This document shows, one piece after another, positions 7,073 to 19,955 of a stretch of 32,000 nt of DNA (its first letter is position 1; the number at the start of each line of letters is the position of its first letter). The translations under genes and the position numbers were made by a program. A model generated the notes under the pieces. It was not told the DNA's origin. It worked only from the letters and a program-made list of their open reading frames with translations, and ran no database searches. Location: NCBI RefSeq assembly GCF_051225715.1, contig NZ_JBPJSP010000040.1, positions 20,015 through 52,014 of the forward strand, written 5' to 3'. This DNA comes from Azospirillum sp. ST 5-10 (GTDB taxonomy: Bacteria; Pseudomonadota; Alphaproteobacteria; Azospirillales; Azospirillaceae).

Positions 7073-7075
7073 GGC

Positions 7076-7852
7076 TCAGCGTCCCCGGAAGCTTGGCGTG
7101 CGCTTGTCGAGGAAGGCGGTCACGCCCTCGCGCATGTCCTCGGTGGCGAACAGCAGGGCGAAGGCCTGGCGCTCGTGGGCCAGGCCCTGCTCCAGCCCCG
7201 GCTCGAAGCTCGCCAGCACCGCCTGCTTGGCAAGCCGCACGGCGACCGGCGGCTTATCGGCGATGCGCGCGGCCAGCGCCACCGCCCGCTCGATGGACAG
7301 CTCGGCCGGCGTCACCTCGGCGACCAGGCCGGCCGCCAGCGCCGCCTGGGCGTCGATGGGCTGGCCGGTGAGCACCATCCGCATGGCGAGCGCCTTGCCG
7401 ACCGCGTGGGTCAGCCGCTGCGTGCCGCCGGCACCGGGGATCAGGCCGAGGTTGATCTCGGGCTGGCCGAACTGGGCGGTGTCGCCGGCGACGATGATGT
7501 CGGCGTGCATGGCGAGCTCGCAGCCGCCGCCCAGCGCGTAGCCGTTGACGGCGGCGATCAGCGGCTTGGGGAAGCGGCGGATGGCGGTCCAGTGGCGCGG
7601 CCGCTCGTCGGCCAGCACGCTGACCGCGCTGTGCGCCGCCAGCTCGCCGATGTCGGCGCCGGCGGCGAAGACCCGCTCGCCGCCGGTCACGACGACCGCG
7701 CGCACCGCGTCGTCCGCCGCGGCGTCCGTCAGCGCCTCGGCGACGGCCCGCAGCAGCGGCGTCGCCAGCGCGTTGCGCGCGTGCGGCCGGTTCAGGGTGA
7801 GGCGCAGCACATGGGGGTGCGGCGTGTCCGTCAGCAGGATGTCGCTCGTCAT
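7076..7852 (-). CDS. paaF: enoyl-CoA hydratase (2,3-dehydroadipyl-CoA hydratase-like)
   Basis: Track ORF 7076..7918. Start moved to MTSDILLTD (residue 23). Crotonase motifs LNRPHARNAL, FAAGADI, AAVNGYALGGGCELA, EDMREGVTAFLDKRTPSFRG. Confidence 0.85.
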   Translation of the reverse strand: MTSDILLTDTPHPHVLRLTLNRPHARNALATPLLRAVAEALTDAAADDAVRAVVVTGGERVFAAGADIGELAAHSAVSVLADERPRHWTAIRRFPKPLIAAVNGYALGGGCELAMHADIIVAGDTAQFGQPEINLGLIPGAGGTQRLTHAVGKALAMRMVLTGQPIDAQAALAAGLVAEVTPAELSIERAVALAARIADKPPVAVRLAKQAVLASFEPGLEQGLAHERQAFALLFATEDMREGVTAFLDKRTPSFRGR

Positions 7853-7952
7853 GGCCCGTCGGTCGTTGTCGGGGATCGGCGTCGCCGGGGCCCGGCATAC
7901 CCGCCATGACATGAACAATCATGCAGCACGCGCGCGGCTGTCAAGCCGGATT

Positions 7953-7969
7953 ATGCATTATATAGCATG
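7953..7969 (-). promoter_or_regulatory. TGCA-containing 17-mer ATGCATTATATAGCATG with embedded -10-like TATAAT (minus strand); candidate paaF promoter/operator
   Basis: AT-rich island in GC-rich DNA about 100 nt upstream of paaF. Dyad ATGC-N8-GCAT. On the minus strand 7962..7957 reads TATAAT. 14/17 identical to the site at 9505-9521. Confidence 0.45.
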
Positions 7970-7977
7970 TCCGGCGG

Positions 7978-8913
7978 TCACGACGCGGCGCGGTGCGTCT
8001 CCAGACGGCCGAGACCCGCCACCAGCTCGGCCAGGCAGTCCTCGACGTCGCGGCCGGTGGTGTCGACGGTCAGATCGGCCAGGGAGTCGAGGGGCGCACG
8101 GCGGGCCAGGGAGTCGGCGACCCCGCCGGCGAAGGCGCGGCGCAGCCCGCCGTCGCCGGGCCGCGGCAGCGTGCGGCGGACGTGCTCCTCGACCGAAGCC
8201 CGCACCCACACGGTGGCGCCGTGGCGCCGCAACCGGTCGATCGCGGCGGGATCGGCGGCGGCCAGCCCGCTGAGCACGATCACCGCCGCGCCATGGCGGG
8301 CCAGGAGGTCGTCGATACAGCGCCGCTCCGCCGCGGCGAAGGCGGGAGGGCCGCACAGGGCGAGGAGGTCGGCGGCGGCCAGCCCGACGTCCCGCCCGAT
8401 CTCCTCGTCGACGACGACCAGGGGCAGGTCCAGACGTTCGGCGAGGCGGCGGCCGAGCGTCCTCCGCCCGGCTCCCGTCGTGCCGAGCAGCGCCACGCCG
8501 CGCCCGGCCGGCGACGCCGGGCCGCCGTCGCGCAGCAGCGCGTCCAGGGCGACGCCGGTGGCCTGCGCCACCGCGCGCAGCAGCAGGACGGAGATGTTGC
8601 CGTGGCCGGTCTCCAACTGGGCGAGGTGGCGCTCGGAGACGCCGGAGCGCAGCGCCAGCGCCTTGCGCGTCATGCCCTGGCCGACCCGCGCGGCCCGCAC
8701 CCGTTCGCCCAGCGCCTCGAGGAAGGAGGGGCGGTCGTCGGTCCCAACGGGGACCTCGGGGGCCGCGGCCGGCCGCGCCTGCGGCAGCGGCCGGCACGGC
8801 GGCAGGCTGCCGTCCCACACCGCCTCGAGCGGCGTCGCCTGCGACAGGGGCCGGATGGCGGGGCCGCCGGGACGGGGGGCGAGGCGGGCGGCGGTGTGGC
8901 GTGTGTCGCTCAT
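7978..8913 (-). CDS. XRE-type HTH fused to a shikimate-kinase-like domain (BzdR/BoxR-type acyl-CoA-responsive regulator)
   Basis: 311 aa. HTH LGERVRAARVGQGMTRKALALRSGVSERHLAQLETGHGNISVLLLRAVAQATGV. The C-terminal AroK-like domain starts at VALLGTTGAGRRTLGRRLAERLDLPLVVVDEEI. The architecture matches BzdR/BoxR of Azoarcus (from memory). Confidence 0.8.
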   Translation of the reverse strand: MSDTRHTAARLAPRPGGPAIRPLSQATPLEAVWDGSLPPCRPLPQARPAAAPEVPVGTDDRPSFLEALGERVRAARVGQGMTRKALALRSGVSERHLAQLETGHGNISVLLLRAVAQATGVALDALLRDGGPASPAGRGVALLGTTGAGRRTLGRRLAERLDLPLVVVDEEIGRDVGLAAADLLALCGPPAFAAAERRCIDDLLARHGAAVIVLSGLAAADPAAIDRLRRHGATVWVRASVEEHVRRTLPRPGDGGLRRAFAGGVADSLARRAPLDSLADLTVDTTGRDVEDCLAELVAGLGRLETHRAAS

Positions 8914-9002
8914 CGTTCCCTGCGCTTTCCTGGACGGGTCCCGGACGGGCGGACCCTATGCCGTCGCGGCCCGCGCCGTCCCCGCGGCCGTTTGTCGCAC
9001 CA

Positions 9003-9479
9003 TCAGTCCGCCGCCTCCATCGTCCGGCAGCGGGAGCGGTAGTCGGCGATGCGGCGCGCCAGCGGCTCGGGGATGGCGATGGCGCGCATCGCCTCGGTGT
9101 CGACGAAGGAGCAGACCCACACCCCGGCGAACGCCGCCACCCCGTCGCCGCGCCGCCCCTGCACGCGGAAGCGCACGGTGGAGCGGCCGGTGTCCTCCAC
9201 CAGCACGGTGGTCTCGACGGTGTCGCCGGGCACCAGGGGCGCCGTCATGTCCAGCTCGGCGTGGACGAAGGGGCTGCCGACGTTGCACGCCGTGTTGAGA
9301 TGGTACCAGCCGTTGGCCAGCACCTCGTCGAACCAGCCCTCGATCGCCTCGATGGCGTAGTCGAAGAGGCGAACCGTGTAGGCGATGCGCGCGGCGTCGG
9401 TGTGCCCGAACCGCACCTTGCGGCGGTGCACGTAGGGGGCGGGAAACGGCGCCTCCGGCACCTCGATCGCTCGCGACAT
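9003..9479 (-). CDS. hotdog-fold acyl-CoA thioesterase (YbgC/4HBT-like)
   Basis: Track ORF 9003..9506. Start moved to MSRAIEVPE (residue 10) preceded by GGAGA. VRFGHTDAARIAYTVRLFDY matches the Asp-containing catalytic N-terminus of 4HBT class I thioesterases. Confidence 0.8.
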   Translation of the reverse strand: MSRAIEVPEAPFPAPYVHRRKVRFGHTDAARIAYTVRLFDYAIEAIEGWFDEVLANGWYHLNTACNVGSPFVHAELDMTAPLVPGDTVETTVLVEDTGRSTVRFRVQGRRGDGVAAFAGVWVCSFVDTEAMRAIAIPEPLARRIADYRSRCRTMEAAD

Positions 9480-9499
9480 GGGTTCGTCTCCGCCGGCAG

Positions 9500-9523
9500 A
9501 ATGCATGCATTATGATGCATGAT
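9500..9523 (-). promoter_or_regulatory. TGCA-repeat palindromes overlapping a putative promoter for the thioesterase/regulator unit
   Basis: AATGCATGCATTATGATGCATGAT contains three TGCA cores and the perfect 10-bp palindrome ATGCATGCAT (9501-9510). The minus strand reads TTGTGC (9537..9532), N17, CATAAT (9514..9509). It lies 26 nt upstream of ATG 9479. Confidence 0.5.
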
Positions 9524-9541
9524 CGCGACGCGCACAACAGA

Positions 9542-9889
9542 TCACTGCTGTATAGCGCATGAATGGAGACGCCACGCGGCCCGGCCGACGTGCGGCAACG
9601 GCTTGATCGCGTCGAGGGCGTCGCCCAGCTCGGCGCGTGCGTTCTTCGTTTCGTAGAGGCTCTGCAGGTTGGTCCAGTAGCCGGGAGCGGTCCCGAACGC
9701 CTTCGCCAGGCGGAGCGCCATGGGAGCGGTGATCCGTCGTTGGCCGTTCGGGATCTCCGTCACCGCGTTCGGCGGAACGCCGATGTGCTCGGCGAAACGG
9801 CGGGCGCTCATCTCCAGCGCCTCCAGGTCGTCGCGCAGGATTTCACCCGGATGGATCGCCGGAAGACTGTCGATCGCGGGGCAAGTCAT
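9542..9889 (-). CDS. higA: HigA-family antitoxin (XRE HTH)
   Basis: Track ORF 9542..9901 begins at TTG; I use the ATG at residue 5 (MTCPAIDS). IHPGEILRDDLEALEMSARRFAEHIGVPPNAVTEIPNGQRRITAPMALRLAKAFGTAPGYWTNLQ is the HigA/VapI signature. Confidence 0.85.
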   Translation of the reverse strand: MTCPAIDSLPAIHPGEILRDDLEALEMSARRFAEHIGVPPNAVTEIPNGQRRITAPMALRLAKAFGTAPGYWTNLQSLYETKNARAELGDALDAIKPLPHVGRAAWRLHSCAIQQ

Positions 9890-9897
9890 GACCGGCC

Positions 9898-10110
9898 TCA
9901 ATGATCATCGGTGATCTCGACATCGTAGGCTTCACCCGGAAGCACCAACACGTCAACGTTGGCGCAGGCTTCCCCGATCGCGGCCCAGCGGAAACACACC
10001 CGCCACTGGGCATTGATCCTGATGCTGTATTGGCCGACACGATTGCCGTCGCAGGCGGCTGCGGCGACGACCCGCGGGGGCAGCCGTCCTGCGGCGTCCG
10101 CCCCGTGTCC
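9898..10110 (-). pseudogene. higB: higB (RelE/ParE-superfamily killer protein) remnant, N-terminally truncated
   Basis: Own translation of the minus frame ending at TGA 9900..9898: ...GRLPPRVVAAAACDGNRVGQYSIRINAQWRVCFRWAAIGEACANVDVLVLPGEAYDVEITDDH*. The GQYSIRINxQWRxCFRW...DVEIxDYH core is present. There is no start codon or N-terminal homology upstream, and the ORF track does not list it as an ORF. Confidence 0.5.
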
Positions 10111-10138
10111 TAAGCAGCTTTGCCCGGATTCGCCACGA

Positions 10139-10216
10139 TTGCCCCCACCCTCCCCACGGCTTCGCCGCGGCTCCCCTCCCTCCCCCGCTTCGCAGGGGAG
10201 GGAGGGGTGGGGGCAA
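10139..10216. repeat. nested GC-rich palindromic (REP-like) element
   Basis: Inner perfect 13-bp inverted repeat CCCCTCCCTCCCC (10173-10185) / GGGGAGGGAGGGG (10195-10207) with a 9-nt loop. Outer 12-bp arms TTGCCCCCACCC (10139-10150) / GGGTGGGGGCAA (10205-10216). Confidence 0.6.
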
Positions 10217-10264
10217 ACGTGTCGTGACCAACACCACTCCGCTTGGCGCGGCGGGGACCGTACG

Positions 10265-11737
10265 TCACGCCGCGCCGCCGGCCCAGGGGAGTGGCGCTTC
10301 GGCGAGGCTCCAGTACAGGCTCTTCTGGTTCATGTAGGCGCGGATGCCCTGGCGGCCCTTCTCGCGGCCGAGGCCGCTCTCCTTCACACCGCCGAACGGC
10401 GTGGAAATGCTGAACTGCTTGTAGGTGTTGATCCACACGGTGCCGGTGCGCAGGCGGCGCGCGACCCGCCAGATGCGGCGGTAGTCGGCCGACCAGATGC
10501 CGGCGGCGAGACCATAGACGCTGTCGTTGGCCTCGGCGATCAGGGCGTCCTCGTCGTCGAAGGGCAGCACGACCACGACTGGCCCGAAGATCTCCTCCTG
10601 GCAGACGCGCGCACGGTTGGACAGGCCGGCAATCACCGTGGGGAGGAGATAGCAGCCGGCCGCGTACTCCGCCCCCTCCGGCCGGGTGCCGCCGGCCAGG
10701 ACCTCGCCACCCTCCTCCACCGCCAGGCGGACGTACGCCTCGACGCCGTCGCGGTGGCGCGGATGGATCAGCGGCGCCACCTGGGTGCCCGGCCGCTCGG
10801 GATGGCCGACCCGCAGGCGCCGGGCGCCCGCCACCAGCCGCTCGACGAAGGCGTCGTAGACCGGCCGCTCGACGAACAGGCGCGAGCCAGCGATGCAGGA
10901 CTGGCCGCTGGAGCTGAAGATGCCGTAGAGGGCGCCGGCCACCGCGGCGTCGAGGTCGGCGTCGGCGAAGACGATGTTGGGCGACTTGCCGCCCAGCTCC
11001 AGGGACACCGGCATCAGCTTGTCGGCGGCGGCGTGGGCGATGCCGCGCCCGGTCGCGGTGCCGCCGGTGAACGAGACCTTGGCCACCAGCGGGTGGCGCA
11101 CCAGCGCGTCGCCGGCCACCGCGCCGGAGCCGGGCAGCGCCGAGAACAGGCCGGCCGGCAGCCCCGCCTCCTCGATCACGCGGGCCAGCTCCAGGCAGAC
11201 CAGCGGCGACCAGGCCGCCGGCTTCAGCACCACCGCGTTGCCGGCGGCCAGCGCCGGCGCCACCTTCTGGGCGTCGCTGGCGATCGGCGAGTTCCACGGC
11301 GTGATGGCGCCGACGACGCCGATCGGCTCGTGCAGGCTCATGGTCAGGCAGTCGCCGCGCGGCGGCGTCAGCTCCTCCTCCAGCGTCTCCAGCGCCGCCG
11401 CCATGTAGCGGAAGGTGCCGGCGGCGCTCGCCACCAGGGCGCGCGTCTCGGCCAGGGTCTTGCCGGTGTCGCGGGTCTGCACCCGGGCGATCTCCTCGGC
11501 CCGGCGCTCGATGCCGGCGGCGATGGCGGAGAGGTGGCGCGCCCGCTCGTGCGGCCGCAGGTCGCGCCAGGCCGGGTCGTCCATGGCCCGGCGGCCGGCC
11601 TCCACCGCCTCGGCCACGTCCTCGGCCGAGGCGCCCGCCACCTCGGCGTTGAGGCTGCCGTCGGCCGGGAAGTGGGAGGCGATGGTCTCGCCCCGCCCCT
11701 CGCGCCAGCGGCCGGCGATGAAGATCGGCTTGCCCAT
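10265..11737 (-). CDS. NAD(P)-dependent aldehyde dehydrogenase
   Basis: Track ORF 10265..11797 starts at TTG. I prefer ATG at residue 21 (MGKPIFIAGRW) preceded by GGGAGG. Motifs ELGGKSP and catalytic Cys GQSCIAGSR. Confidence 0.9.
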   Translation of the reverse strand: MGKPIFIAGRWREGRGETIASHFPADGSLNAEVAGASAEDVAEAVEAGRRAMDDPAWRDLRPHERARHLSAIAAGIERRAEEIARVQTRDTGKTLAETRALVASAAGTFRYMAAALETLEEELTPPRGDCLTMSLHEPIGVVGAITPWNSPIASDAQKVAPALAAGNAVVLKPAAWSPLVCLELARVIEEAGLPAGLFSALPGSGAVAGDALVRHPLVAKVSFTGGTATGRGIAHAAADKLMPVSLELGGKSPNIVFADADLDAAVAGALYGIFSSSGQSCIAGSRLFVERPVYDAFVERLVAGARRLRVGHPERPGTQVAPLIHPRHRDGVEAYVRLAVEEGGEVLAGGTRPEGAEYAAGCYLLPTVIAGLSNRARVCQEEIFGPVVVVLPFDDEDALIAEANDSVYGLAAGIWSADYRRIWRVARRLRTGTVWINTYKQFSISTPFGGVKESGLGREKGRQGIRAYMNQKSLYWSLAEAPLPWAGGAA

Positions 11738-11793
11738 GGTGGCCTCCCGGTCCGATGAGGATGGTTCAGACGGCGCCCGTCGAATGGCGCCGG

Positions 11794-12600
11794 TCAAATG
11801 GCGATGACGGCGTCGAGGTTGAGGAGCGACCGCGCGACGCTGAGCGCGGTCAGCATGGAGGTCTTCGGGTTGTCCGGGTCCGGCCGCCCTTCGAGGCGGA
11901 TGGCGATGCGCCCGCTGGCGCCCTCGGCCTCGATCTCGTGCACGTTGCCGGGGGCGGCCGGGTCGGCCACCAGCTCCACCGCCGTGTCGGCGAAGCCGAG
12001 CCCGGCCAGCGCCACCGTCGCCGCCACGTTGGCGTTCTTCGGGTAGCGCAGGGCGGCCTCGGCGGCGCTGCCGCGGTAGAAGGTCAGCGGCTCCTCCAGC
12101 CGGTCGAGATCGGCCGCCGCCTCGGCCGGGGAGCCCTTCCAGGCCGCCGGCGGCTTGCGCGAGCGGTAGGTGACCCGGGCCAGCCCGGACACCCGCATGG
12201 CGGCGATGGCGTCGATGCCGCCGACGGCGCCGGCCGGCAGCAGGACGCGCCGCCCCGCCGCCCGCGCCGCCTCCGTCAGCCGGCCATGGAGCGCCGGGTC
12301 GGCCAGCGCGCCGACCGAGATGACCAGCAGGTCGCAGCCGGCCGCCAGCACCGCCGGCCCGTGCTCGGCGACGGCGCCCTGCCCCGCCACCTCGGCGACG
12401 ACGTCGGGGCGGCGCGCCAGCAGATCGTCGAGGCGGTCGACCGCGTCCATCTCCCCGGCCCCCCCCTCGGCGCGCAGCGCCGCCGCGCGCGCCGGCGAGA
12501 CGAGGACGCCGACCAGGGAGTCGGCGCGGCCGGCCGCCCGAAGGTGCCGGGCGACGGCGCGGCCGATGGCGCCGTAGCCGATCAGGGCGATGCGGGTCAT
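11794..12600 (-). CDS. aspartate dehydrogenase-like (NadX family) amino-acid dehydrogenase
   Basis: 268 aa. Rossmann fold IALIGYGAIGRAV. C-terminal domain with AAMRVSGL...YRSRKPPAAW...NVHEIEAEG typical of L-aspartate dehydrogenases. Its ATG overlaps the TPP gene stop (ATGA). Confidence 0.8.
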   Translation of the reverse strand: MTRIALIGYGAIGRAVARHLRAAGRADSLVGVLVSPARAAALRAEGGAGEMDAVDRLDDLLARRPDVVAEVAGQGAVAEHGPAVLAAGCDLLVISVGALADPALHGRLTEAARAAGRRVLLPAGAVGGIDAIAAMRVSGLARVTYRSRKPPAAWKGSPAEAAADLDRLEEPLTFYRGSAAEAALRYPKNANVAATVALAGLGFADTAVELVADPAAPGNVHEIEAEGASGRIAIRLEGRPDPDNPKTSMLTALSVARSLLNLDAVIAI

Positions 12601-14318
12601 GGCTCAGCCCCCCGCACGGTGACCGGCGGACCGGCGAACCGGATGCCGAAGGCGCCGACGGCGGCCATGTCGACCTCGACCATCCGCGGCCCCCCGCCGC
12701 GGACCGCGGCGCCGACGACGTCGGCGAAGGCGGCGGCGCTGTCGACGCGGGCGTAGGGCAGATCGTAGGCGGCGGCGATCCGGGCGAAGTCGGGGTTGCG
12801 CAGGTCGGTGTACATGCGCCGCGCCCCGTAGGCCGCGTCCTGGATGTTGCGGATGACGCCGTAGCCGCCGTCGTTCATGACGATCAGGGTGACGTCGGCC
12901 GCCTCCTCGACCAGGGTGCCGAGCTCGCCCAGGCAGAGCTGCAGGGCGCCGTCGCCGGTGATGGCGACGGTCCGGCGCCCGGACGCGACGGCGGCGCCGA
13001 TGGCATGGGGCAGGCCCTGGCCGATGCCGCCGCCGGCGGCGTGCACCGCCTGCCCCGGCGCGCGCAGCACCGGCGAGCGGTTGCCCCAGATGGAGTTGGA
13101 CAGCGTGATGTCGCGCACCCACAGCGCACCGCCGTCGACGGCCGCGGCGACGGCGTCGCGCAGCGCCGCGTAGGGGCCCATCTGGCGCACCAGATCGGCC
13201 TCCGCCGCGGCGCGCGCCGCGGCCACGGCGTCCGGCCAGTCCGCCGCGGCGCGCCAGCCGTCCTCCAGCGCGTCGGCGAGGACGTCGAGCACCAGCGCGG
13301 CGTCGCCCTGCACGAAGCCGTCGCCGGGATAGCCGCGGCCGTCCGCCCGCGGATCGACGTCGACGCGCAGCAGCGGGCTCGGCAGGCGCAGCCCGTAGGT
13401 GCGGGTCTCGTTGCTGCGCAGGTGGGTGCCGGCGACCAGCATCAGGTCGGCGCGCCCGTAGAGCTCGGCCACCGCCGGCGCCGCGGTGTAGGCGGCGAGG
13501 CTCATGGCATGGTCCTCCGGCAGGATGCCGCGGCCGCTGACGCTGGAGAGCACGCCGACGCCGAGGTCGGCCAGCCGCCGCACCGCCGCTCCGGCATGGC
13601 GGGCGCCGCCGCCGACCCACAGCAGCGGCCGCCGGCTGGCGAGCAGCCGCACCGCCAGCCAGGCGACGTCGGCGGGCGCCGGCCGCACCGGGTCGGGCGG
13701 CGTCACCGCCAGGGACTCCGGCACCGCCGCCATGGCCTTCTGCACGTCGATCGGGATCTCCACGCTGACCGGCCCGGTGGGGGCGGCGAGCGCGGCGCGG
13801 ATCGCCGCGCGCATCACCGGCACCGCCTCGTCCGCCCGGGTCACGCGGAAGAACGCCTTGGACGCGGCGGCGAGCGTGCCCGGCTGGTCCGCCGCCTCGT
13901 GGATGAAGCCCCAGCCGCGGTCCAGGTAGGGACTGTCGATCTGGCCGGTGAGGTGGATCATCGGCGTGCCGGCGGTCATCGCCTCGACCAGCGCGCCGAC
14001 GCCGTTGCCCGCCCCGGTGCCGGTGCTGGTGACGGCCAGGGTCAGGTGTCCCGAGACGCGGGCGGCGGCGTCGGCCATGTTGACCGCCCCCGCCTCGCCG
14101 CGCGCCGTGACGAAGCGGATCGCCCCGCGCCGGCCGATGGCGTCGAGGATCGGCATGTTGTGCAGGCTGATGACGCCGAACGCCGTCGCCACGCCGGCCG
14201 CCTCCAGCATCGCGACGACCAGGTCGCCGACGGCGGCGGTGGCGTTCCCCGTCGCGTGCGGGGCGAGGTCCTTGGGCATCGCGGGCTCCGTGGTGAGGGT
14301 GGGCTCGGACAGGGTCAT
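12597..14318 (-). CDS. thiamine-diphosphate-dependent enzyme (acetolactate synthase / 2-oxoacid decarboxylase superfamily)
   Basis: The real gene is the last 573 aa of the 824-aa track ORF, starting MTLSEPTLTT at ATG 14318. Its ATG overlaps the hydrolase stop (ATGA). TPP motif GDGALQ...VMNDGGYG. N-terminal Pyr domain GVISLHNMPILDA...ARGEAGAVNMADA. Confidence 0.85.
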   Translation of the reverse strand: MTLSEPTLTTEPAMPKDLAPHATGNATAAVGDLVVAMLEAAGVATAFGVISLHNMPILDAIGRRGAIRFVTARGEAGAVNMADAAARVSGHLTLAVTSTGTGAGNGVGALVEAMTAGTPMIHLTGQIDSPYLDRGWGFIHEAADQPGTLAAASKAFFRVTRADEAVPVMRAAIRAALAAPTGPVSVEIPIDVQKAMAAVPESLAVTPPDPVRPAPADVAWLAVRLLASRRPLLWVGGGARHAGAAVRRLADLGVGVLSSVSGRGILPEDHAMSLAAYTAAPAVAELYGRADLMLVAGTHLRSNETRTYGLRLPSPLLRVDVDPRADGRGYPGDGFVQGDAALVLDVLADALEDGWRAAADWPDAVAAARAAAEADLVRQMGPYAALRDAVAAAVDGGALWVRDITLSNSIWGNRSPVLRAPGQAVHAAGGGIGQGLPHAIGAAVASGRRTVAITGDGALQLCLGELGTLVEEAADVTLIVMNDGGYGVIRNIQDAAYGARRMYTDLRNPDFARIAAAYDLPYARVDSAAAFADVVGAAVRGGGPRMVEVDMAAVGAFGIRFAGPPVTVRGAEP

Positions 14319-15139
14319 CGGACCGTCTCCAGGAAGGACAGCACGGGGGCGGCGTAGGCGGCGGGGTCCTCGGCGTAGCCGGCGTGCCCGACCCCGGGGA
14401 TCTCGGCGTACGTCGCCCCCGGGAAGGCGGCGGCGACGCGGCGCGCCGTTTCCGGCGGCACCACCGCGTCGAGGGCGCCGCAGGTGACGAGGCCGGGCAG
14501 CCGCAACCCCGCCACCGCCGCCGCCAGGGCGCCGCGGGCGAGCAGCGAACAGGCGCCGGCGTAGCCCGCCGGCCGCACCTCGGCCATGGCGCGGCGCACC
14601 GCCGCCACCGCCGCGGGCGCCGCGCCGGGGGCGCACAGGCGGCCGGCCCGCCGCTCGGCGAAGACCTCCGGCCCCAGCGCGCGCAGATCGCCGAGGCGGT
14701 CGGCGACGGCGGCCGGCCAGGGGGCGTCGGGCGGCAGCCCGTGGCCCGGCGCCGGATCGGCCAGCACCAGGGCGGCCGCCCGCCGCGGGTGACGGTCGGC
14801 CAGCGCCGCCGCTACCATAGCGCCCAGCGAATGGCCGAGCACGACGGCGCCCGCCACGTCCAGCGCCCCCAGGAGGGCGTCCAGCGCGTCGGCGTAGTCG
14901 GCCGGCCCCGGCCGTTCCTGCGCCAGCGGGTCGGAGCCGCCGTAGCCCGGGGCGTCCCAGGCGATCACCCGCCGGTGCGCCAGGAGCGGCAGCAGGGGCT
15001 GCCAGGACCCGGCGTTGGAGCCGATGCCGTGCAGCAGGACCAGCGGCGCTCCCTGCCCCGCCTCGATCCACGACAGCGTCCGGCCGCCGATGGCGAGGTG
15101 GCGCCGCGGCGCGGCGGCGCTGCGCACGGGGGCCGTCAT
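14315..15139 (-). CDS. alpha/beta-fold hydrolase
   Basis: 274 aa. Oxyanion region LVLLHGIGSNAGSW. Nucleophile elbow GHSLGAMVA. C-terminal IPGVGHAGYAEDP. Its start shares 1 nt with the SDR stop (TGATG). Confidence 0.85.
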   Translation of the reverse strand: MTAPVRSAAAPRRHLAIGGRTLSWIEAGQGAPLVLLHGIGSNAGSWQPLLPLLAHRRVIAWDAPGYGGSDPLAQERPGPADYADALDALLGALDVAGAVVLGHSLGAMVAAALADRHPRRAAALVLADPAPGHGLPPDAPWPAAVADRLGDLRALGPEVFAERRAGRLCAPGAAPAAVAAVRRAMAEVRPAGYAGACSLLARGALAAAVAGLRLPGLVTCGALDAVVPPETARRVAAAFPGATYAEIPGVGHAGYAEDPAAYAAPVLSFLETVR

Positions 15140-15888
15140 CAGGTGAACACGAAGCCGCCGTTCACCGGCAAGGTCTGGCCGGTGACGAAGGACGCCGCGT
15201 CCGACAGCAGGAAGACGGCGGAGCCGACGACGTCGCCCGGGACCTGCGCCCGGGTGATGGCCCGCCCGTTCTCATAGAGGGCGTGGCGTTCCGCCGGCAC
15301 GTACTCCGTCGCCTCCACCTTGGTGAGGCCGACCGCGAGCGCGTTGACCCAGATGCCCTTGGTCCCGAGCTCGCGGGCCAGCGAGCGGGTCATCGAGATC
15401 ACCGCCCCCTTGCTGGCGACGTAGTGCAGCAGGCGCGGCGCCCCCCACAGCGCGGTGTCGGAGGCGAGATTGACGATGCCGCCGCCGCGGTCCATCAGCG
15501 GCACCAGCGCCTTCACCACCAGCCAGACGCCGCGGACGTTGACCCGCAGCACCCGGTCGAAGGTGTCGACGTCGATCTCGTCGAAGGTCTTGCCGCCGAT
15601 GCCGGTGGCGATGGCGGCGTTGTTGACCAGGCCGTCGATCCGCCCCGCCCGTTCCCGCACGGCGGCGGCGAAGGCGTCGACGCTGTCGGGCTCGCCGACA
15701 TCCAGCGGCAGCGCCTCGGCGGCGAATCCCTGCGCCGTCAGGTCGGCGACGGCGGCGGCGGCGAGATCGTCGCGCAGCTCGCCGACGATGACGCGGGCGC
15801 CGGCCGCGCAGCACGCCTCGGCGAAGGCACGGCCGAGGCCGCGGCCGGCGCCGGTGACGACGATGGTCTTGCCGTCGAGCGCACCCAT
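15139..15888 (-). CDS. classical short-chain dehydrogenase/reductase
   Basis: Track ORF 15139..16020. Start moved to MGALDGKTIVVTGAGRGLGRA (residue 45) preceded by AAGGAGG. Motifs TGxxxGxG, NNAA and YVASK (YxxxK) are present. Confidence 0.9.
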   Translation of the reverse strand: MGALDGKTIVVTGAGRGLGRAFAEACCAAGARVIVGELRDDLAAAAVADLTAQGFAAEALPLDVGEPDSVDAFAAAVRERAGRIDGLVNNAAIATGIGGKTFDEIDVDTFDRVLRVNVRGVWLVVKALVPLMDRGGGIVNLASDTALWGAPRLLHYVASKGAVISMTRSLARELGTKGIWVNALAVGLTKVEATEYVPAERHALYENGRAITRAQVPGDVVGSAVFLLSDAASFVTGQTLPVNGGFVFT

Positions 15889-15911
15889 GTCCGTGCCTCC
15901 TTCGTCCCGCC

Positions 15912-16514
15912 TCAGCCCTGGGCGGCCTTGCGGCGCAGCCGCTCCGCCTTGGCGCGAGCGATGGGGTGGTCGTCGGGATAGTCCGGCAGGTCGGGCTTGT
16001 TGTTGCCGAGCATGACGCACATCAGCGACTCCTCCTGGCTCTCGTTGCGCAGGCCGCGGTAGACGCCGGGCGGCACGGAGATGACGTCGCGCTCGTTAAG
16101 GCGGGTCTCCCAGGTCTCGCCCTCGTACTCGAAGAACAGGACGATGCCGCGGCCGCGCAGGATAAAGAACGCCTCCTCCACATCGTGGTGGACGTGCAGC
16201 GGCCCCTCGCAGCCGGCCGGCAGGATCATCGTGGAGAAGGTGAAGTGCTCGGCCGGGATGGTGTTGGTGTCGCTGGCGACCCCGGCCGCCCCGGTGCCGA
16301 TGTAGCGGGTCTGGGCGCGGCGGTACTTGGGATCGACCTCGGCCTGCCAGGCCAGCGCGTTCCAGTCGTAGGTGCGGGTCTCGTGCTGGGCGATGCGGGT
16401 CTTCAGCCAGTCGCCGAGCGACGCGCCGGCAGGCTTCTTCCAGGTCGGGAACTCGGGATTCTCCTGCGACGGGATCGGCACCTCGGGGGCGGCGGTCTTC
16501 ACGGCAGCGCTCAT
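15912..16514 (-). CDS. cupin-domain protein (putative metal-dependent oxygenase, isomerase or decarboxylase)
   Basis: Track ORF 15912..16517 (GTG). ATG at 16514 lies 7 nt after AGGAGG. Cupin motif 1 GCEGPLHVHHDVEEAFFILRG. Motif 2 reads PPGVYRGLRN, with Arg where the usual His sits. Confidence 0.75.
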   Translation of the reverse strand: MSAAVKTAAPEVPIPSQENPEFPTWKKPAGASLGDWLKTRIAQHETRTYDWNALAWQAEVDPKYRRAQTRYIGTGAAGVASDTNTIPAEHFTFSTMILPAGCEGPLHVHHDVEEAFFILRGRGIVLFFEYEGETWETRLNERDVISVPPGVYRGLRNESQEESLMCVMLGNNKPDLPDYPDDHPIARAKAERLRRKAAQG

Positions 16515-16560
16515 CACGGGACCTCCTGCTGGGCCGGCGCGTCTCGCTTCGCCCGAGGGC

Positions 16561-16595
16561 GTTTCATATATGAGACGTGCGTTTTGATATGAAAC
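16561..16595. promoter_or_regulatory. operator-like palindrome GTTTCA-TATA-TGAGAC plus 9-bp inverted repeat GTTTCATAT/ATATGAAAC
   Basis: AT-rich segment in the 169-nt divergent region between the cupin operon (start 16514) and the SDR gene (16684). Core at 16561-16576; arms at 16561-16569 and 16587-16595. Same palindrome type as 24683-24698. Confidence 0.5.
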
Positions 16596-16683
16596 ATGCT
16601 AGAGAGGTCGGGCGGGCGCGTCAAGGGTTTCGACCGTGCGCACCGTCCACCTGCACCACCGGCACGAGGGGGAGGCTCCGGCG

Positions 16684-17463
16684 ATGGATCTCGGGTTGAA
16701 GGGCCGCACGGCGATCGTCTGCGCCGCCAGCCGCGGCCTCGGGCGCGCCTGCGCCGAGGCGCTGGCGGCCGAAGGAGCGGAGATCCTGCTGGTGGCCCGC
16801 ACGGCGGGGCCGCTGGAGGAGGCGGCCGCCGCGATCGCCGGCGCCCACGGCGCCACGGTGCGCTGGGTGGCGGCCGACGTGGCGACCGACGCCGGCATCG
16901 CCGCCGTCGTCGACGCCTGCCCCGATCCCGACATCCTGGTGAACAACGCCGGCGGCCCGCCGCCCGGCGACTTCCGCGACTGGGACCGCGCCGCCTGGCA
17001 CCGGGCGCTGGACGCCAACATGCTGTCGGCGGTCCTGCTCGTCCGGGCGACGGTGGACGGGATGAGCGCCCGCGGCTTCGGGCGCATCGTCAACATCACC
17101 TCCTCGGCGGTGCGGGCACCGCTGCCGATCCTCGGCCTCTCCAACGGCGCGCGCGCCGGCCTCACCGGCTTCGTCGCCGGCCTGGCGCGCGAGGTCGCCC
17201 GGCACGGGGTGACGGTCAACAACCTGCTGCCGGGCACCTTCGACACCGGCCGCCTGCAGGCCAACTTCGAGGCGCGCGCCGCCCGCGAGGGCCGCCCGGT
17301 CGAGGAGGTCCGCGCCGCGTCGCGCCGCGCCAACCCGACCGGCCGTTTCGGCGACCCGGCGGAACTGGGCGCGCTGTGCGCCTATCTCTGCAGCCCGCAG
17401 GCGGGCTACATCAACGGCCAGAACATCGTGCTGGACGGCGGGGCGCACAGCTCGCTGGCGTGA
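16684..17463 (+). CDS. atypical SDR-like oxidoreductase (BKR-like subgroup)
   Basis: Track ORF 16636..17463. Start moved to MDLGLKGRTAIVCAASRGLG (residue 17) after GGGGGAGG. The SDR fold is clear, but the YxxxK position reads LSNGAR. Confidence 0.8.
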   Translation: MDLGLKGRTAIVCAASRGLGRACAEALAAEGAEILLVARTAGPLEEAAAAIAGAHGATVRWVAADVATDAGIAAVVDACPDPDILVNNAGGPPPGDFRDWDRAAWHRALDANMLSAVLLVRATVDGMSARGFGRIVNITSSAVRAPLPILGLSNGARAGLTGFVAGLAREVARHGVTVNNLLPGTFDTGRLQANFEARAAREGRPVEEVRAASRRANPTGRFGDPAELGALCAYLCSPQAGYINGQNIVLDGGAHSSLA

Positions 17464-17716: not shown

Positions 17717-18013
17717 ATGAAAGCCCGTTCCCTCCTGGACCGCCGCATCACGCTGAGGCCGACGGTGTTTGCGGAGTTGGTTCTATGGGACGTGCCGGCT
17801 CCCGTCCCTGGCAGTGCTCACAACTACAAATACCGGTTGGCTCTGGTTTCCGGGGGCGTATGCGTCCTACGCTACGACAACGAGGCTGGAAAGGGCGATC
17901 ACGTTCATGTCGGCACCGATGAGCGGCCCTACCGGTTCGAGGGGGTCGACCGTCTGATCGCCGATTTCGAAATCGATGTGCGGAGGTGGCTCGATGAGCA
18001 CGGTGACTCTTGA
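17717..18013 (+). CDS. DUF6516-like small protein (putative toxin of a two-gene module; I recall RefSeq naming the family TumE)
   Basis: 98 aa. Core WDVPAPVPGSAHNYKYRLALV...LRYDNEAGKGDHVHVG...PYRF matches my memory of this family. Overlaps the next gene by 20 nt. Confidence 0.55.
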   Translation: MKARSLLDRRITLRPTVFAELVLWDVPAPVPGSAHNYKYRLALVSGGVCVLRYDNEAGKGDHVHVGTDERPYRFEGVDRLIADFEIDVRRWLDEHGDS

Positions 18014-18341
18014 AGTGTCCGACCTTAGCGAGGGACTGGCCGCGTTTCGCAAGGCATGGACGAGCGGACGCGCCGAGGAAGGAGCCCGCATCGGCTTCGC
18101 CTCGCCGGAGCTGCTGTGGAAGGTGCTCACCGCCAAGCGCTGGGAATTGCTTCGGACCATGACCGGTCAGGGGCCGCTGGCTCTGCGCGAGGTCGCAAGG
18201 CGCGTCGAGCGCGACGTGAAAGGCGTCCACACCGACGTTCACGCTCTGGTCGAGGCAGGCCTCATTCGCAGGACGGCGGACGGAAAGTTCGAGTTCCCGT
18301 ACGACGCGGTCCACGTCGATTTCATGCTGCGCGCTGCGTGA
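17994..18341 (+). CDS. winged-HTH DNA-binding protein (putative cognate antitoxin/regulator)
   Basis: Track ORF 17976..18341. ATG at residue 7 (MSTVTLEV) follows GGAGG by 7 nt. LLWKVLTAKRWELLRTMTGQGPLALREVARRVERDVKGVHTDVHALVEAGLI is a MarR/ArsR-like wHTH. Confidence 0.55.
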   Translation: MSTVTLEVSDLSEGLAAFRKAWTSGRAEEGARIGFASPELLWKVLTAKRWELLRTMTGQGPLALREVARRVERDVKGVHTDVHALVEAGLIRRTADGKFEFPYDAVHVDFMLRAA

Positions 18342-18362
18342 GCACCCGACCAAGGCGCCCGT

Positions 18363-18378
18363 CGTCAGCGCGCTGACG
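18363..18378. terminator. perfect 16-bp palindrome CGTCAGCGCGCTGACG between convergent genes
   Basis: Lies between the HTH gene stop (18341) and the purT stop (18438). No U-tract. Confidence 0.35.
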
Positions 18379-18410
18379 GCGCTGCCGCCGGCACCTTGAA
18401 CCGGACCCAC

Positions 18411-18429
18411 CGCGATCTCTTCGATCGCG
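18411..18429 (-). terminator. hairpin CGCGATC-TCTTC-GATCGCG just downstream of purT
   Basis: 7-bp stem, 8 nt beyond the purT stop codon on the minus strand. No clear U-tract. Confidence 0.3.
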
Positions 18430-18437
18430 CCCGGCGA

Positions 18438-19613
18438 TCAGGGTTCGTACCGGATGCGCACCCGCCCGGCCGCGCGCCGCGCCAGGTCGCGCGCCGCGTC
18501 GGCGGTGGCGCCGGTCGCCAGGGCGACGCCCATGCGGCGGTACGGACGGGTGGTCGGCTTGCCGAAGAGGCGAACCTCCACCTCGGCGTCCGGCGACCCC
18601 AGCCGCAGCGCCTCGTCCAGCCCTTCGAAGGCGAAGCGCTCGGACTCGCGGTCGGCGAGGATCACCGCCGAGGCGGCCGGCCCGCGCAGGTGCACGGCGG
18701 GGATCGGCAGGCCGAGGATGGCGCGGGCGTGCAGGTCGAACTCCGACAGGTTCTGGGAGATCAGCGTCACCATGCCGGTGTCGTGCGGCCGCGGCGACAG
18801 CTCGGAGAAGATCACCGCGTCGCCGGCCACGAAGAACTCGACCCCGAACAGGCCGTAGCCGCCGAGATCGTCGACGATCTTGCGGGCCATCTCCTGGGCC
18901 TCGGCGACGAGCGTGTCCGGCATGGCGACGGGCTGCCAGGATTCCTGGTAGTCGCCGCGCTCCTGGCGGTGGCCGATCGGCGGACAGAACACCACGCCGT
19001 CGCGCGTGCGCACCGTCAGCAGGGTGATCTCGTAGTCGAAGGCGACGAACTGCTCGACGATGACCCGCCGGCGGTCGCCGCGCATGTTGGCGACCGCGTA
19101 GGTCCAGGCGCGCTCCAGCTCCTCCTCGCTGCGCACCGTGCTCTGCCCCTTGCCGGACGACGACATCACCGGCTTGACCACGCAGGGCAGCCCGGTGTGG
19201 GCGACGGCGGCCCGCACCTCGTCGAGGCTCTCCGCGTAGCGGTAGCGCGAGGTGCGCAGGCCGAGCCCGCCCGCCGCCACCTCGCGGATGCGGTCGCGGT
19301 TCATGGTCATGACGGTGGCGCGCGCCGAGGGGACGACCGTGAAGCCCTCGGCCTCCAGCTCCTGCAGCACCTCGGTGCGGATCGCCTCGATCTCCGGCAC
19401 GATGAAATCGGGCCGGTGCCGCTCCACCGCCGCCCGCAGGGCGTCGCCGTCGAGCATCGAGAAGACCTCGGCCGCATCGGCCACCTGCATCGCCGGCGCC
19501 CCGGCGTAGCTGTCGCAGGCGACCACGTGGCAGCCGTAGCGCTTGGCCGAGATGGCGAACTCCTTGCCGAGCTCGCCGGACCCGAGAAGCAGGATCTTCG
19601 CCGTGAACGCCAT
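18438..19613 (-). CDS. purT: formate-dependent phosphoribosylglycinamide formyltransferase (GAR transformylase 2)
   Basis: 391 aa. KILLLGSGELGKE, VVKPVMSSSGKGQS (ATP-grasp), GLFGVEFF, SPRPHDTG and RRMGVALA are PurT hallmarks. RBS GGAGGAGAGG. Confidence 0.95.
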   Translation of the reverse strand: MAFTAKILLLGSGELGKEFAISAKRYGCHVVACDSYAGAPAMQVADAAEVFSMLDGDALRAAVERHRPDFIVPEIEAIRTEVLQELEAEGFTVVPSARATVMTMNRDRIREVAAGGLGLRTSRYRYAESLDEVRAAVAHTGLPCVVKPVMSSSGKGQSTVRSEEELERAWTYAVANMRGDRRRVIVEQFVAFDYEITLLTVRTRDGVVFCPPIGHRQERGDYQESWQPVAMPDTLVAEAQEMARKIVDDLGGYGLFGVEFFVAGDAVIFSELSPRPHDTGMVTLISQNLSEFDLHARAILGLPIPAVHLRGPAASAVILADRESERFAFEGLDEALRLGSPDAEVEVRLFGKPTTRPYRRMGVALATGATADAARDLARRAAGRVRIRYEP

Positions 19614-19639
19614 GAACGCCTCTCCTCCACCACAACGGC

Positions 19640-19672
19640 ACCGCCCGGCCGAGGGTAGCGCGGCCGGGCGGT
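19640..19672 (-). terminator. 12-bp-stem hairpin after the RHH antitoxin gene
   Basis: ACCGCCCGGCCG (19640-19651) / CGGCCGGGCGGT (19661-19672) with a 9-nt loop. It lies between the antitoxin stop (19704) and the purT start (19613). No U-tract. Confidence 0.4.
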
Positions 19673-19703
19673 CATGGGTACGGAGAAGTGAGGAGCGCGT
19701 GTC

Positions 19704-19955
19704 TCAGGCGGATTCCATCCGGTCATCGTCGCGCGGCGGGTTGCCAGTTCCGGAGCGGGCCAGGATGTCCTTGGCTTGGCCACGCTGCGCGCGGGCACCG
19801 CGGGCGGCGAAATAGCGCTCGGCCTCGGACTGGGCTCCGACCCGGGCCGCAAGGGCCGTCGCGATATACTGGTTGAGACTGACTCCCGCGGCTTCCGCCT
19901 GGGCAATGGCTGCCTTCTTCAAGTCGTCGGGAAGCCGGAGTGGAAAGCTGGTCAT
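19704..19955 (-). CDS. ribbon-helix-helix (Arc/HicB-like) antitoxin
   Basis: 83 aa. SFPLRLPDDLKKAAIAQAEAAGVSLNQYIATALAARVG is the RHH signature. Its ATG overlaps the PIN gene stop (ATGA). Confidence 0.75.
   Translation of the reverse strand: MTSFPLRLPDDLKKAAIAQAEAAGVSLNQYIATALAARVGAQSEAERYFAARGARAQRGQAKDILARSGTGNPPRDDDRMESA

Follow-up and report, generated by a model that had tools for sequence, protein, structure and literature searches.

A six-gene operon of Azospirillum sp. ST 5-10 as the core of a widely conserved gene cluster, a candidate regulon for N-heteroaromatic acid catabolism

The window analysed here is a 32,000-nucleotide stretch of the genome of Azospirillum sp. ST 5-10 (assembly GCF_051225715.1, contig NZ_JBPJSP010000040.1, positions 20,015 to 52,014 of the forward strand), with a base composition of about 73% G+C; the ThDP enzyme, AspDH and cupin described below are 100% identical to proteins of this strain. 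Its minus strand carries an operon of six genes, which encode a cupin, a short-chain dehydrogenase/reductase (SDR), an alpha/beta-hydrolase, a thiamine diphosphate (ThDP)-dependent enzyme, an aspartate dehydrogenase (AspDH) family protein and an aldehyde dehydrogenase (ALDH). An earlier note on this DNA had described the operon and its junctions and had named the six protein families; the arrangement is found exactly as described, at the positions listed below, and the family calls are upheld by Pfam and NCBIfam. Comparison with other genomes shows that the six genes are the core of a widely conserved cluster of about 15 genes that has no pathway name, and the cluster is very probably a regulon for the catabolism of an aromatic or N-heteroaromatic acid. 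The elements of the operon, in the direction of transcription, are:

16596-16624, minus strand: sigma-70-like promoter (TTGACG-17-TAGCAT), upstream of the cupin gene.
15912-16514, minus strand: cupin (Cupin_2), 200 aa; Pfam match.
15139-15888, minus strand: operon SDR; Pfam and NCBIfam matches.
14315-15139, minus strand: alpha/beta-hydrolase with a GHSLG nucleophile elbow; Pfam and NCBIfam matches.
12597-14318, minus strand: ThDP-dependent enzyme, 573 aa (NF005470/PRK07064); three ThDP Pfam domains and an NCBIfam match.
11794-12600, minus strand: AspDH family protein, 268 aa; Pfam and NCBIfam matches.
10265-11737, minus strand: NAD(P)-dependent ALDH, 490 aa; Pfam and NCBIfam matches.
10173-10207, minus strand: strong hairpin 3' of the ALDH stop codon, with a 16-bp stem, a predicted energy of -39 kcal/mol and no U-tract.

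The six open reading frames (ORFs) are real genes and not shadow ORFs of high-GC DNA. Pfam E-values of the products range from 2e-10 (cupin) to 8e-167 (ALDH), third-position GC is 0.86-0.97 in those operon genes that were measured, and each product has hundreds to thousands of homologues. The cupin start is placed at the ATG at 16514, which has AGGAGG 7 nt upstream, while the mechanically called ORF begins one codon earlier with a GTG at 16517. Upstream of it lies the sole promoter-like match in the region 9900-16750 (shuffled sequence yields 0.1), and the hairpin at 10173-10207 likely marks the 3' end of the operon. As read from the sequence, the cupin and SDR genes are separated by a 23-nt gap, the SDR and hydrolase genes share a TGATG (1-nt overlap), and both the hydrolase/ThDP and the ThDP/AspDH junctions are ATGA (the former a 4-nt overlap), while the last gap, between the AspDH and ALDH genes, is 56 nt long and contains a GGGAGG ribosome-binding site and a small GGCGCC hairpin. 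The co-oriented genes, their short or overlapping junctions, the one promoter in front and the hairpin at the end make this a translationally coupled operon. The tight coupling had been taken as a sign of a stoichiometric pathway. High-GC operons often have start and stop codons that overlap, so the ATGA and TGATG overlaps carry no special weight, and the coupling is ordinary and says little alone; the significance lies in the conserved gene set.

Beyond the operon, the region from 16.6 to 28.3 kb holds partner genes that fall into further transcription units. One runs on the minus strand (24590 to 20452) in the order reductase, small protein, binding protein, RidA, HTH_62 protein and Rieske oxygenase, and another on the plus strand (24793 to 28298) with the ATPase and permease of an ATP-binding cassette (ABC) importer, an IclR regulator and a vicinal oxygen chelate (VOC) protein:

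16684-17463, plus strand: second SDR (SDR2), divergent from the operator-bearing region.
20452-21480, minus strand: Rieske oxygenase alpha subunit (Rieske plus VanA_C, phthalate family; PF00355 and PF19112).
21519-21815, minus strand: small HTH_62 protein (PF20552, 'recombinase-like HTH'; E 1e-26), directly upstream of the Rieske gene.
21817-22224, minus strand: RidA/YjgF family imine/enamine deaminase; start codon approximate.
22242-23234, minus strand: NMT1/TauA-type periplasmic binding protein of an ABC importer; family match.
23231-23590, minus strand: conserved small protein (about 105-120 aa), encoded between the genes for the reductase and the binding protein; matches no Pfam family.
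23619-24590, minus strand: FNR-like reductase with a C-terminal 2Fe-2S domain (PDR/VanB type; PF00111), for the Rieske oxygenase.
24793-25614, plus strand: ABC importer ATPase; family match.
About 25622-26494, plus strand: ABC importer permease; family match.
26487-27308, plus strand: IclR-family regulator (PcaR/PobR-like); family match.
27378-28298, plus strand: two-domain VOC protein, a type I extradiol ring-cleavage dioxygenase by family, outside the six-gene operon.

A scan of 185,579 species genomes, anchored on an alignment of the ThDP enzyme, gave 80 loci, a few apparent strays among them, which span Alpha-, Beta- and Gammaproteobacteria and include Pseudomonas, Cupriavidus, Paraburkholderia, Caballeronia, Herbaspirillum, Comamonadaceae, Reyranella and Stellaceae. 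Presence was counted by tblastn of the window proteins onto the 57 ThDP-anchored loci with full 10-kb flanks. All six operon genes occur together in 40 of these, across the three proteobacterial classes, which bears out the gene-neighbourhood conservation that the earlier note had wished to see checked; the six genes with both the Rieske oxygenase and the VOC protein occur in 37. Individually, the most frequent are the hydrolase (54/57), the cupin and the IclR regulator (53/57 each), the VanA/phthalate-type Rieske oxygenase (52/57), AspDH (51/57) and the operon SDR (50/57), followed by ALDH and the two-domain VOC protein (46/57 each), the NMT1-type binding protein (34/57) and RidA (20/57). SDR2, the 2Fe-2S reductase and the ABC importer with its NMT1-type binding protein are likewise common in related loci, as is RidA. 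The six genes had been proposed as a pathway of their own, a view that does not survive the comparison, as the same genes travel with the Rieske oxygenase, the extradiol dioxygenase, RidA, IclR and transporters. In 63 of 68 ThDP-cluster loci the ThDP, AspDH and ALDH genes are adjacent and co-oriented. A neighbourhood around PA3505 of Pseudomonas aeruginosa, mentioned in the earlier note, is real: Pseudomonas loci show the order hydrolase-IclR-SDR-ThDP-AspDH-ALDH, and PA3504 and PA3505 are adjacent.

Further afield, the same inventory is found on a metagenomic contig and in Halomonas (there with a TRAP transporter and another gene order), and in Acinetobacter baumannii AB5075, where ABUW_2940-2953 encode the ThDP enzyme, ALDH, AspDH, SDR, hydrolase, cupin, an MFS transporter, an FAD oxidoreductase, VOC, a further SDR, a ring-hydroxylating dioxygenase and a ferredoxin. 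The whole cluster, with MFS and TTT components, also lies at 163-186 kb of NZ_CP033971.1 (locus L168 of our set), a 334-kb conjugative plasmid (MOBH, MPF_T) of a clinical isolate of Cupriavidus pauculus. Other families conserved near the cluster are TctC, an FAD hydroxylase, a ferredoxin reductase, a porin and MFS. Because the importer classes (ABC/NMT1, TRAP, TTT and MFS) are interchangeable between the genomes that carry the cluster, the substrate is taken to be an organic (carboxylic) acid. No functional assignment of the cluster was found in the literature searched or in curated annotation (NCBIfam release 20, June 2026; RefSeq), which agrees with the earlier statement that no pathway had been assigned; NCBIfam release 20 and RefSeq give generic names alone.

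Several of the minor partners share in this conservation. The HTH_62 protein is kept in 49 related loci, mostly just before the Rieske gene, and the annotation of the C. pauculus plasmid concurs. The small protein of 105-120 aa shows 55-71% identity across 23 related loci; it has no Pfam match, and its single-sequence AlphaFold2 model (pLDDT 50) is unusable. Orthologues of the ABC ATPase and permease (60-73% identity) are the first genes of the cluster in most related loci, and those of SDR2 (60-65% identity) come after the ALDH gene in Comamonadaceae clusters. The segment between the two halves of the regulon in the window (17748-20383) contains an ORF of 220 codons without a family, purT (formate-dependent GAR transformylase) and a PIN-domain toxin gene. 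These genes are absent from all related loci, and the segment looks like an unrelated insertion or rearrangement specific to the lineage.

The two divergent promoter regions of the cluster are linked by a palindrome of the form GTYTCA-N4-TGAGAC:

16561-16576: GTTTCATATATGAGAC, in the space between the divergent cupin and SDR2 genes, with the predicted -10 element on one side and the cupin start on the other.
24683-24698: GTCTCATTAGTGAGAC, in the divergent reductase/ABC promoter region.

Within the 32 kb the motif is found just at these two places (counting both strands and allowing one mismatch, 4 matches against 0.12 expected). It recurs ahead of the cluster, at a distance of 100-350 bp from its first gene, in 13 related loci, including seven of Pseudomonas, Cupriavidus basilensis, Ideonella, Limnohabitans and one alphaproteobacterium. 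This is good evidence for a conserved operator, which is presumably bound by the IclR protein. As the palindrome is common to both divergent promoters, the six-gene operon would be co-regulated with the oxygenase and transport genes, and with a palindrome at both promoters and an IclR gene in the cluster the arrangement has the marks of an IclR-controlled regulon. The IclR protein of the window scores 137 bits against the BhcR model, below its cutoff. Between the IclR and VOC genes (27309-27365) there are also two tandem copies of GACCGGCGCGGTTCCGCGCC, each a GC hairpin, and a third copy of the hairpin core at 31509-31524; this may be a REP-like intergenic element.

The oxygenase genes point to the opening of an aromatic ring. 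An alpha subunit with Rieske and VanA_C domains, together with an FNR-like reductase with a plant-type 2Fe-2S domain, makes up a phthalate-family (class IA-like) Rieske system. The reductase is of the PaaE/GbcB type, and its equivalent on the C. pauculus plasmid is named 'PDR/VanB family oxidoreductase' by RefSeq. Nearest among solved relatives of the Rieske protein are carbazole 1,9a-dioxygenase (CarAa), phthalate dioxygenase (PDO), dicamba demethylase (DdmC) and 2-oxoquinoline 8-monooxygenase (OxoO); CarAa, OxoO and PDO attack N-heterocycles or phthalate beside a hetero-substituted carbon. Orthologues of the operon SDR directly follow the Rieske gene in three loci (L001, L166, L168), a position that is usual for a cis-dihydrodiol dehydrogenase, and the operon SDR is a candidate partner of the Rieske oxygenase in that role. 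In an alignment of the VOC protein with homoprotocatechuate 2,3-dioxygenase (HPCD), the equivalents of H155, H200, H214, H248, Y257 and E267 are all kept. The protein thus has the two-domain fold, the 2-His-1-Glu metal site and the acid/base residues His200, His248 and Tyr257 (HPCD numbering) of type I extradiol enzymes, and is a credible ring-cleavage dioxygenase.

In this part the cluster resembles the naphthalene (nah), carbazole (car) and 2-oxoquinoline (oxoO) systems, which also combine a Rieske oxygenase and reductase, an SDR, a type I extradiol dioxygenase and an alpha/beta-hydrolase. It differs from them in that the side-chain route by hydratase-aldolase or by meta-cleavage-product hydrolase is missing and a ThDP decarboxylase and ALDH are present instead, and in the addition of a cupin, AspDH and RidA, which would serve a second, nitrogen-containing ring. 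Each enzyme taken singly is an ordinary member of a large family, and the cluster can be read as a meta-cleavage system with two unusual grafts (ThDP/ALDH and cupin/AspDH/RidA).

The first graft has precedents. The ThDP enzyme contains the N, M and C domains of TPP enzymes, and its cofactor-activating Glu (E75) and the GDG...N motif for Mg-ThDP (G455-D456-G457 and N482) are invariant in 19 sequences. It scores 734 bits against NF005470 ('thiamine pyrophosphate-binding protein'; cutoff 495), and the next-best model, the AruI-type NF005712 (5-guanidino-2-oxopentanoate decarboxylase), gives 265 bits. This is below cutoff, as are the ALS, BFD and other NCBIfam models, so that the enzyme falls into no functionally named subfamily among these; no close solved structure was found either, the best PDB match being 161 bits. 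The best named relatives of ALDH are dehydrogenases of ring-fission semialdehydes and of aryl aldehydes, all under their equivalog cutoffs. The likeliest reading of both genes is that the ThDP enzyme is a 2-oxoacid decarboxylase with ALDH downstream, and ALDH would oxidise the aldehyde so made. In the mandelate (MdlC/MdlD) and arginine transaminase (AruI/KauB) pathways a ThDP decarboxylase of the ALS superfamily likewise yields an aldehyde for an NAD(P)-dependent ALDH. The window enzyme, in contrast, belongs to an equivalog of its own (NF005470), and its 2-oxoacid would come from ring fission and not from an amino or hydroxy acid.

The AspDH protein matches PF03447 (NAD_binding_3, 9e-21) and PF01958 (Asp_DH_C, 2.3e-33) and lies above the NCBIfam cutoffs of both NF009828 (297.5 vs 177) and the equivalog NF009827 (237.7 vs 226). 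Its H221 aligns with the catalytic His193 of Thermotoga maritima TM1643 and is shared by all 17 family members compared. In domain architecture, catalytic His and NCBIfam models it is therefore like NadX (EC 1.4.1.21) of T. maritima (TM1643) and Archaeoglobus fulgidus; it differs from NadX in its occurrence in catabolic clusters that have no nadA/nadC linkage and in the proposed direction, which is the reduction of iminoaspartate. The closest relatives of the window protein (60-70% identity, and 65-68% for the most similar) lie outside ThDP clusters, beside molybdenum (Mo) hydroxylases of the xanthine dehydrogenase type, a signature of N-heteroaromatic acid degradation. Such loci were seen at L084 (9001-16335), at L085 (1937-11759) and in about 25 further metagenome loci (L086-L125 and others), with two Mo hydroxylases, Amidohydro_2, an enoyl-CoA hydratase, a TctC or NMT1 binding protein and a cupin of 176-177 aa, which has 35-39% identity with the window cupin over its full length. 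Among 57 loci with usable flanks from an AspDH-anchored metagenome scan, 25 were Mo-hydroxylase clusters without any ThDP enzyme, 17 were ThDP clusters and 15 had other contexts; a homologous cupin accompanies AspDH in both cluster types. The Mo-hydroxylase clusters would then be a second, likewise unassigned type of N-heterocycle cluster in which the AspDH-cupin pair is reused. On the C. pauculus plasmid, directly after the ThDP cluster come another IclR gene, one for TctC and those for the 2Fe-2S and MoCo subunits of a Mo hydroxylase.

This distribution bears directly on the chemistry suggested in the earlier note, an Ehrlich-type chain in which the AspDH-like enzyme deaminates a 2-amino acid (possibly a product of the steps run by cupin, hydrolase or SDR), the 2-oxoacid so formed is decarboxylated by the ThDP enzyme and ALDH oxidises the resulting aldehyde. 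The contiguity and common orientation of the three genes in nearly all ThDP loci would suit such a chain, as would the translational coupling in the window; RidA could hydrolyse the imine produced by the dehydrogenase, and AruI, which is closest to the ThDP enzyme among named proteins, works in a chain of this kind in arginine catabolism. We nevertheless regard it as improbable, because AspDH and the homologous cupin occur together in more metagenome contexts that are Mo-hydroxylase clusters devoid of a ThDP enzyme (25) than in ThDP clusters (17). Moreover, the protein scores above the cutoff of the AspDH equivalog and retains the catalytic His, and enzymes of the PA3505 type are reported to be specific for aspartate; aspartate as substrate would give oxaloacetate, the decarboxylation of which to malonate semialdehyde makes little catabolic sense; and an extradiol ring-fission product already provides a 2-oxoacid, with no need of deamination.

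A role of AspDH in NAD biosynthesis (NadX as in Thermotoga), with a chance location in the operon, is the assignment implied by current annotation, since RefSeq attaches the Gene Ontology term 'NAD biosynthetic process' to AspDH and PA3505 is filed under nicotinate/NAD metabolism in KEGG-style annotation. Genomic context contradicts this. No nadA or nadC turned up among the scanned window proteins or among the conserved neighbours and called genes of the related loci examined, and the AspDH gene is ATGA-overlapped inside a catabolic operon and is kept there in the great majority of related loci. A biosynthetic function is thus hardly credible for this gene.

For the remaining two operon products the evidence is more general. 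The cupin is one of some 2,500 members of its family, in which H108, H110, E114, E115 and H184 are invariant (alignment of 30 sequences); it has motif 1, His-X-His-X3-Glu (H108, H110, E114), of the metal-dependent quercetinase/Dke1-like dioxygenases. Foldseek matches of its AlphaFold2 model (pLDDT 74) are Ni-quercetinase, MncA, germin and 5-nitrosalicylate dioxygenase, and our guess is that it may be a metal-dependent dioxygenase that cleaves the ring or a diketone of a pyridone intermediate. The hydrolase is a canonical serine hydrolase whose nearest named relatives are the enol-lactonase PcaD and esterases, and whose solved relatives include 2-(acetamidomethylene)succinate hydrolase (50.6 bits); by a similar guess it might act on the ring-cleavage product, an amide or ester. 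There is a parallel in the nicotinate nic cluster (NicX/NicD) and in vitamin B6 degradation (MHPC oxygenase and the above 2-(acetamidomethylene)succinate hydrolase), where oxygenolytic opening of a hydroxypyridine gives an N-acyl enamine or amide, from which an alpha/beta-hydrolase then releases small molecules of central metabolism. Here, in contrast, the ring opener would be a cupin and not an NicX-type or flavin enzyme, and AspDH has no counterpart in those pathways; equivalog cutoffs of the nic and B6 pathways were reached by none of the cluster members scanned against NCBIfam.

Taken as a regulon, these genes find their closest match in the bacterial 'quinoline' pathway of kynurenate, worked out in the 1960s by the Hayaishi and Dagley laboratories, with kynurenate 7,8-hydroxylase, 7,8-dihydro-7,8-dihydroxykynurenate dehydrogenase and 7,8-dihydroxykynurenate 8,8a-dioxygenase. 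The sequence of that pathway, from a hydroxylase dependent on NAD(P)H and O2 through a diol dehydrogenase, an extradiol dioxygenase and a reduction to an oxidative decarboxylation, corresponds stepwise to the cluster inventory; the later steps (cupin, hydrolase, AspDH) lie outside the documented pathway and are our own suggestion. The quinoline pathway is known from biochemistry, and no gene sequences assigned to it were found in the literature or annotation searched. Catalogued metabolites of tryptophan include 7,8-dihydroxykynurenate, 5-(3'-carboxy-3'-oxopropyl)-4,6-dihydroxypicolinate and 5-(2'-carboxyethyl)-4,6-dihydroxypicolinate. The step between the two picolinates is a net oxidative decarboxylation of a 2-oxoacid, such as is achieved by a ThDP decarboxylase with an ALDH.

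In our reading the six genes make up the middle and lower portion of an IclR-controlled regulon of about 15 genes for an imported aromatic or N-heteroaromatic carboxylic acid, most likely kynurenate (4-hydroxyquinoline-2-carboxylate) or a close relative such as xanthurenate. With its substrate this reading has about an even chance, and for kynurenate or xanthurenate as the actual substrate the chance is even at best and perhaps slightly less. The route can be sketched from the anatomy of the cluster and from established aromatic catabolism, from which we infer the substrate, the assignment of steps and the direction of AspDH. The Rieske oxygenase and its reductase would convert kynurenate to the 7,8-dihydrodiol, which the operon SDR would re-aromatise to 7,8-dihydroxykynurenate. 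Cleavage of the benzene ring by the VOC extradiol dioxygenase would give a 4,6-dihydroxypicolinate with a 3-carboxy-3-oxopropenyl side chain, the double bond of which could be reduced by SDR2, our candidate reductase for the enone. The ThDP enzyme would then decarboxylate the 2-oxoacid side chain to an aldehyde, and ALDH would oxidise this to 5-(2-carboxyethyl)-4,6-dihydroxypicolinate. In the lower part, the cupin would cleave the pyridone (beta-dicarbonyl) ring with O2, and the alpha/beta-hydrolase would split the resulting N-acyl enamine into 2-oxoglutarate and aminofumarate/iminoaspartate. The ring part N-C2(COOH)-C3-C4 has the skeleton of aspartate and would be freed in this form, and either AspDH would reduce iminoaspartate to L-aspartate or RidA would hydrolyse it to oxaloacetate and ammonia. 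The division of C9 into C5 (2-oxoglutarate) and C4 (the aspartate skeleton) would account for there being no aldolase, hydratase or CoA genes in the cluster. For the last step an analogue exists in BhcD of the beta-hydroxyaspartate cycle, to which the same reaction is attributed (iminosuccinate/iminoaspartate plus NAD(P)H to L-aspartate), with nitrogen conserved during catabolism; BhcD is of the ornithine cyclodeaminase family and unrelated to AspDH, and the likeness is one of analogy and not homology.

The fuller proposal falls somewhat short of an even chance. It holds that the cluster is the kynurenate/xanthurenate pathway, that mesophilic AspDH proteins are catabolic iminoaspartate reductases working with ring-cleaving cupins of a family not recognised before, so that the pyridine-2-carboxylate half becomes L-aspartate, and that the same module is reused in the Mo-hydroxylase clusters for other pyridine or quinoline carboxylates. 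Pointers to nitrogen chemistry are the RidA gene in the cluster and the AspDH and cupin genes in the Mo-hydroxylase clusters. On the physiological side, A. baumannii, which carries the cluster, has been reported to grow on kynurenic acid, and a review cites the formation of glutamate, alanine and organic acids from kynurenate by pseudomonads, and of glutamate and alanine by Pseudomonas extracts.

A number of points weigh against kynurenate as the substrate or against particular steps. The assignment depends on matching an enzyme inventory to a pathway of the 1960s, and the reported products glutamate and alanine correspond just indirectly to the predicted 2-oxoglutarate and aspartate/oxaloacetate. 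No gene of the kynurenine pathway, whether for TDO, formamidase, kynureninase or an aminotransferase, is among the conserved neighbours of the cluster. In the cupin the motif 2 His is absent, the position being Y153/R154 (PPGVYRGLxN), while the cupin homologue in the Mo-hydroxylase cluster L085 has a His there; the invariant H184 might substitute for it. The fold matches of the cupin are generic and suggestive at most, and the relatives of the hydrolase are likewise generic esterases and lactonases. The adjacency of the ThDP, AspDH and ALDH genes fits a direct metabolic hand-over among the three enzymes too. Two further observations are not explained by the model. One is the FAD_binding_3 aromatic hydroxylase that accompanies the cluster in at least 16 loci and is absent from the window. 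The other is that ABUW_2940-2953 of A. baumannii AB5075 rose 2- to 5-fold with vitamin B12, alongside the ssu, tau, sfn and cys genes of the sulfur-starvation regulon (PMC12892962).

The FAD_binding_3 gene is found in L014, L017, L029, L041, L044, L045, L050, L053, L054, L058-L060, L068, L074, L078 and L080, and also at 12145-13305 of L001 and 2535-3662 of L166. We can only speculate that it may be a xanthurenate 7-hydroxylase, feeding xanthurenate into the kynurenate route; in Azospirillum sp. ST 5-10 it either lies elsewhere in the genome or the strain is without one of the entry branches. The frequent presence of this gene could also be read as a sign that the cluster, with the same architecture, serves another imported aromatic or heteroaromatic carboxylate, such as a hydroxyquinoline, quinaldate, an indole or pyridine carboxylate or a phthalate-like acid, in which case the step assignments would shift. 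The comparative evidence establishes a Rieske oxygenase with extradiol cleavage, an importer for carboxylates and enzymes that handle nitrogen, and nothing in it is specific to kynurenate. In addition, sulfatase genes or fragments stand beside the cluster variants of Halomonas (L166, 6723-7094) and Pararhodobacter (L167, 16427-18007), and glutathione S-transferase genes likewise flank variants in this group. We consider a substrate of this sort rather unlikely all the same, since AspDH, cupin and RidA together presuppose a ring whose breakdown gives a C4 amino- or imino-dicarboxylate, just what the pyridine-2-carboxylate half of kynurenate would supply. We also know of no other documented pathway in which the 2-oxoacid side chain of a ring-fission product is first reduced and then oxidatively decarboxylated.

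The flanking sulfatases and the co-induction with sulfur-starvation genes may mean that sulfated aromatic substrates are linked to the cluster. They could also be taken, together with the NMT1/TauA-type binding protein, to indicate organosulfur scavenging or sulfonate catabolism, in which, for example, a cysteate-like substrate would be oxidised by the AspDH-like enzyme and then decarboxylated and oxidised. This was rejected as the principal explanation because the cluster contains no desulfonating enzyme of the TauD, SsuD, Xsc or SuyAB type, and we hold it to be very unlikely: the transporter class varies freely (TRAP, TTT and MFS in other genomes), and a Rieske oxygenase with an intact extradiol dioxygenase indicates ring cleavage for carbon and not the release of sulfur.

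Whatever its substrate, the cluster occurs in Proteobacteria from soil, the sea and clinical sources (the P. aeruginosa group, A. baumannii, Cupriavidus, Paraburkholderia and Halomonas) and on a conjugative plasmid, and yet its genes have generic names. It points to two uncharacterised enzyme families, the ThDP decarboxylases of NF005470 and the cupins. Kynurenate is an abundant tryptophan metabolite of hosts, plants and insects, with signalling roles. If the kynurenate assignment is true, the genes for its degradation would fill several orphan enzyme entries and would bear on the use of host kynurenine-pathway products by pathogens, and aspartate dehydrogenase would gain a physiological role in mesophiles, beyond Thermotoga.

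Other genes of the window lie outside the cluster. Just downstream of the VOC gene, at 28465-31695 on the plus strand, is a gene for a regulator of 1,076 aa with an OmpR/SARP-type DNA-binding domain followed by a STAND/NB-ARC NTPase, which was found in no related locus. At 3501-9901 on the minus strand there is a beta-oxidation-like cluster, with a thiolase, a 3-hydroxyacyl-CoA dehydrogenase of 507 aa, two enoyl-CoA hydratases, a thioesterase and a regulator that joins an XRE helix-turn-helix (HTH) to a shikimate-kinase-like domain (the BzdR/BoxR architecture). These genes (thioesterase, HTH proteins, enoyl-CoA hydratases, 3-hydroxyacyl-CoA dehydrogenase and thiolase) were considered as members of the system and rejected because each was found in merely 0-4 of 83 loci. 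Further to the left, a second VOC protein of the extradiol type (575-1534), a protein of the fumarylacetoacetate hydrolase family (1565-2449) and a divergent LysR regulator (2556-3491) probably constitute another aromatic catabolic module.

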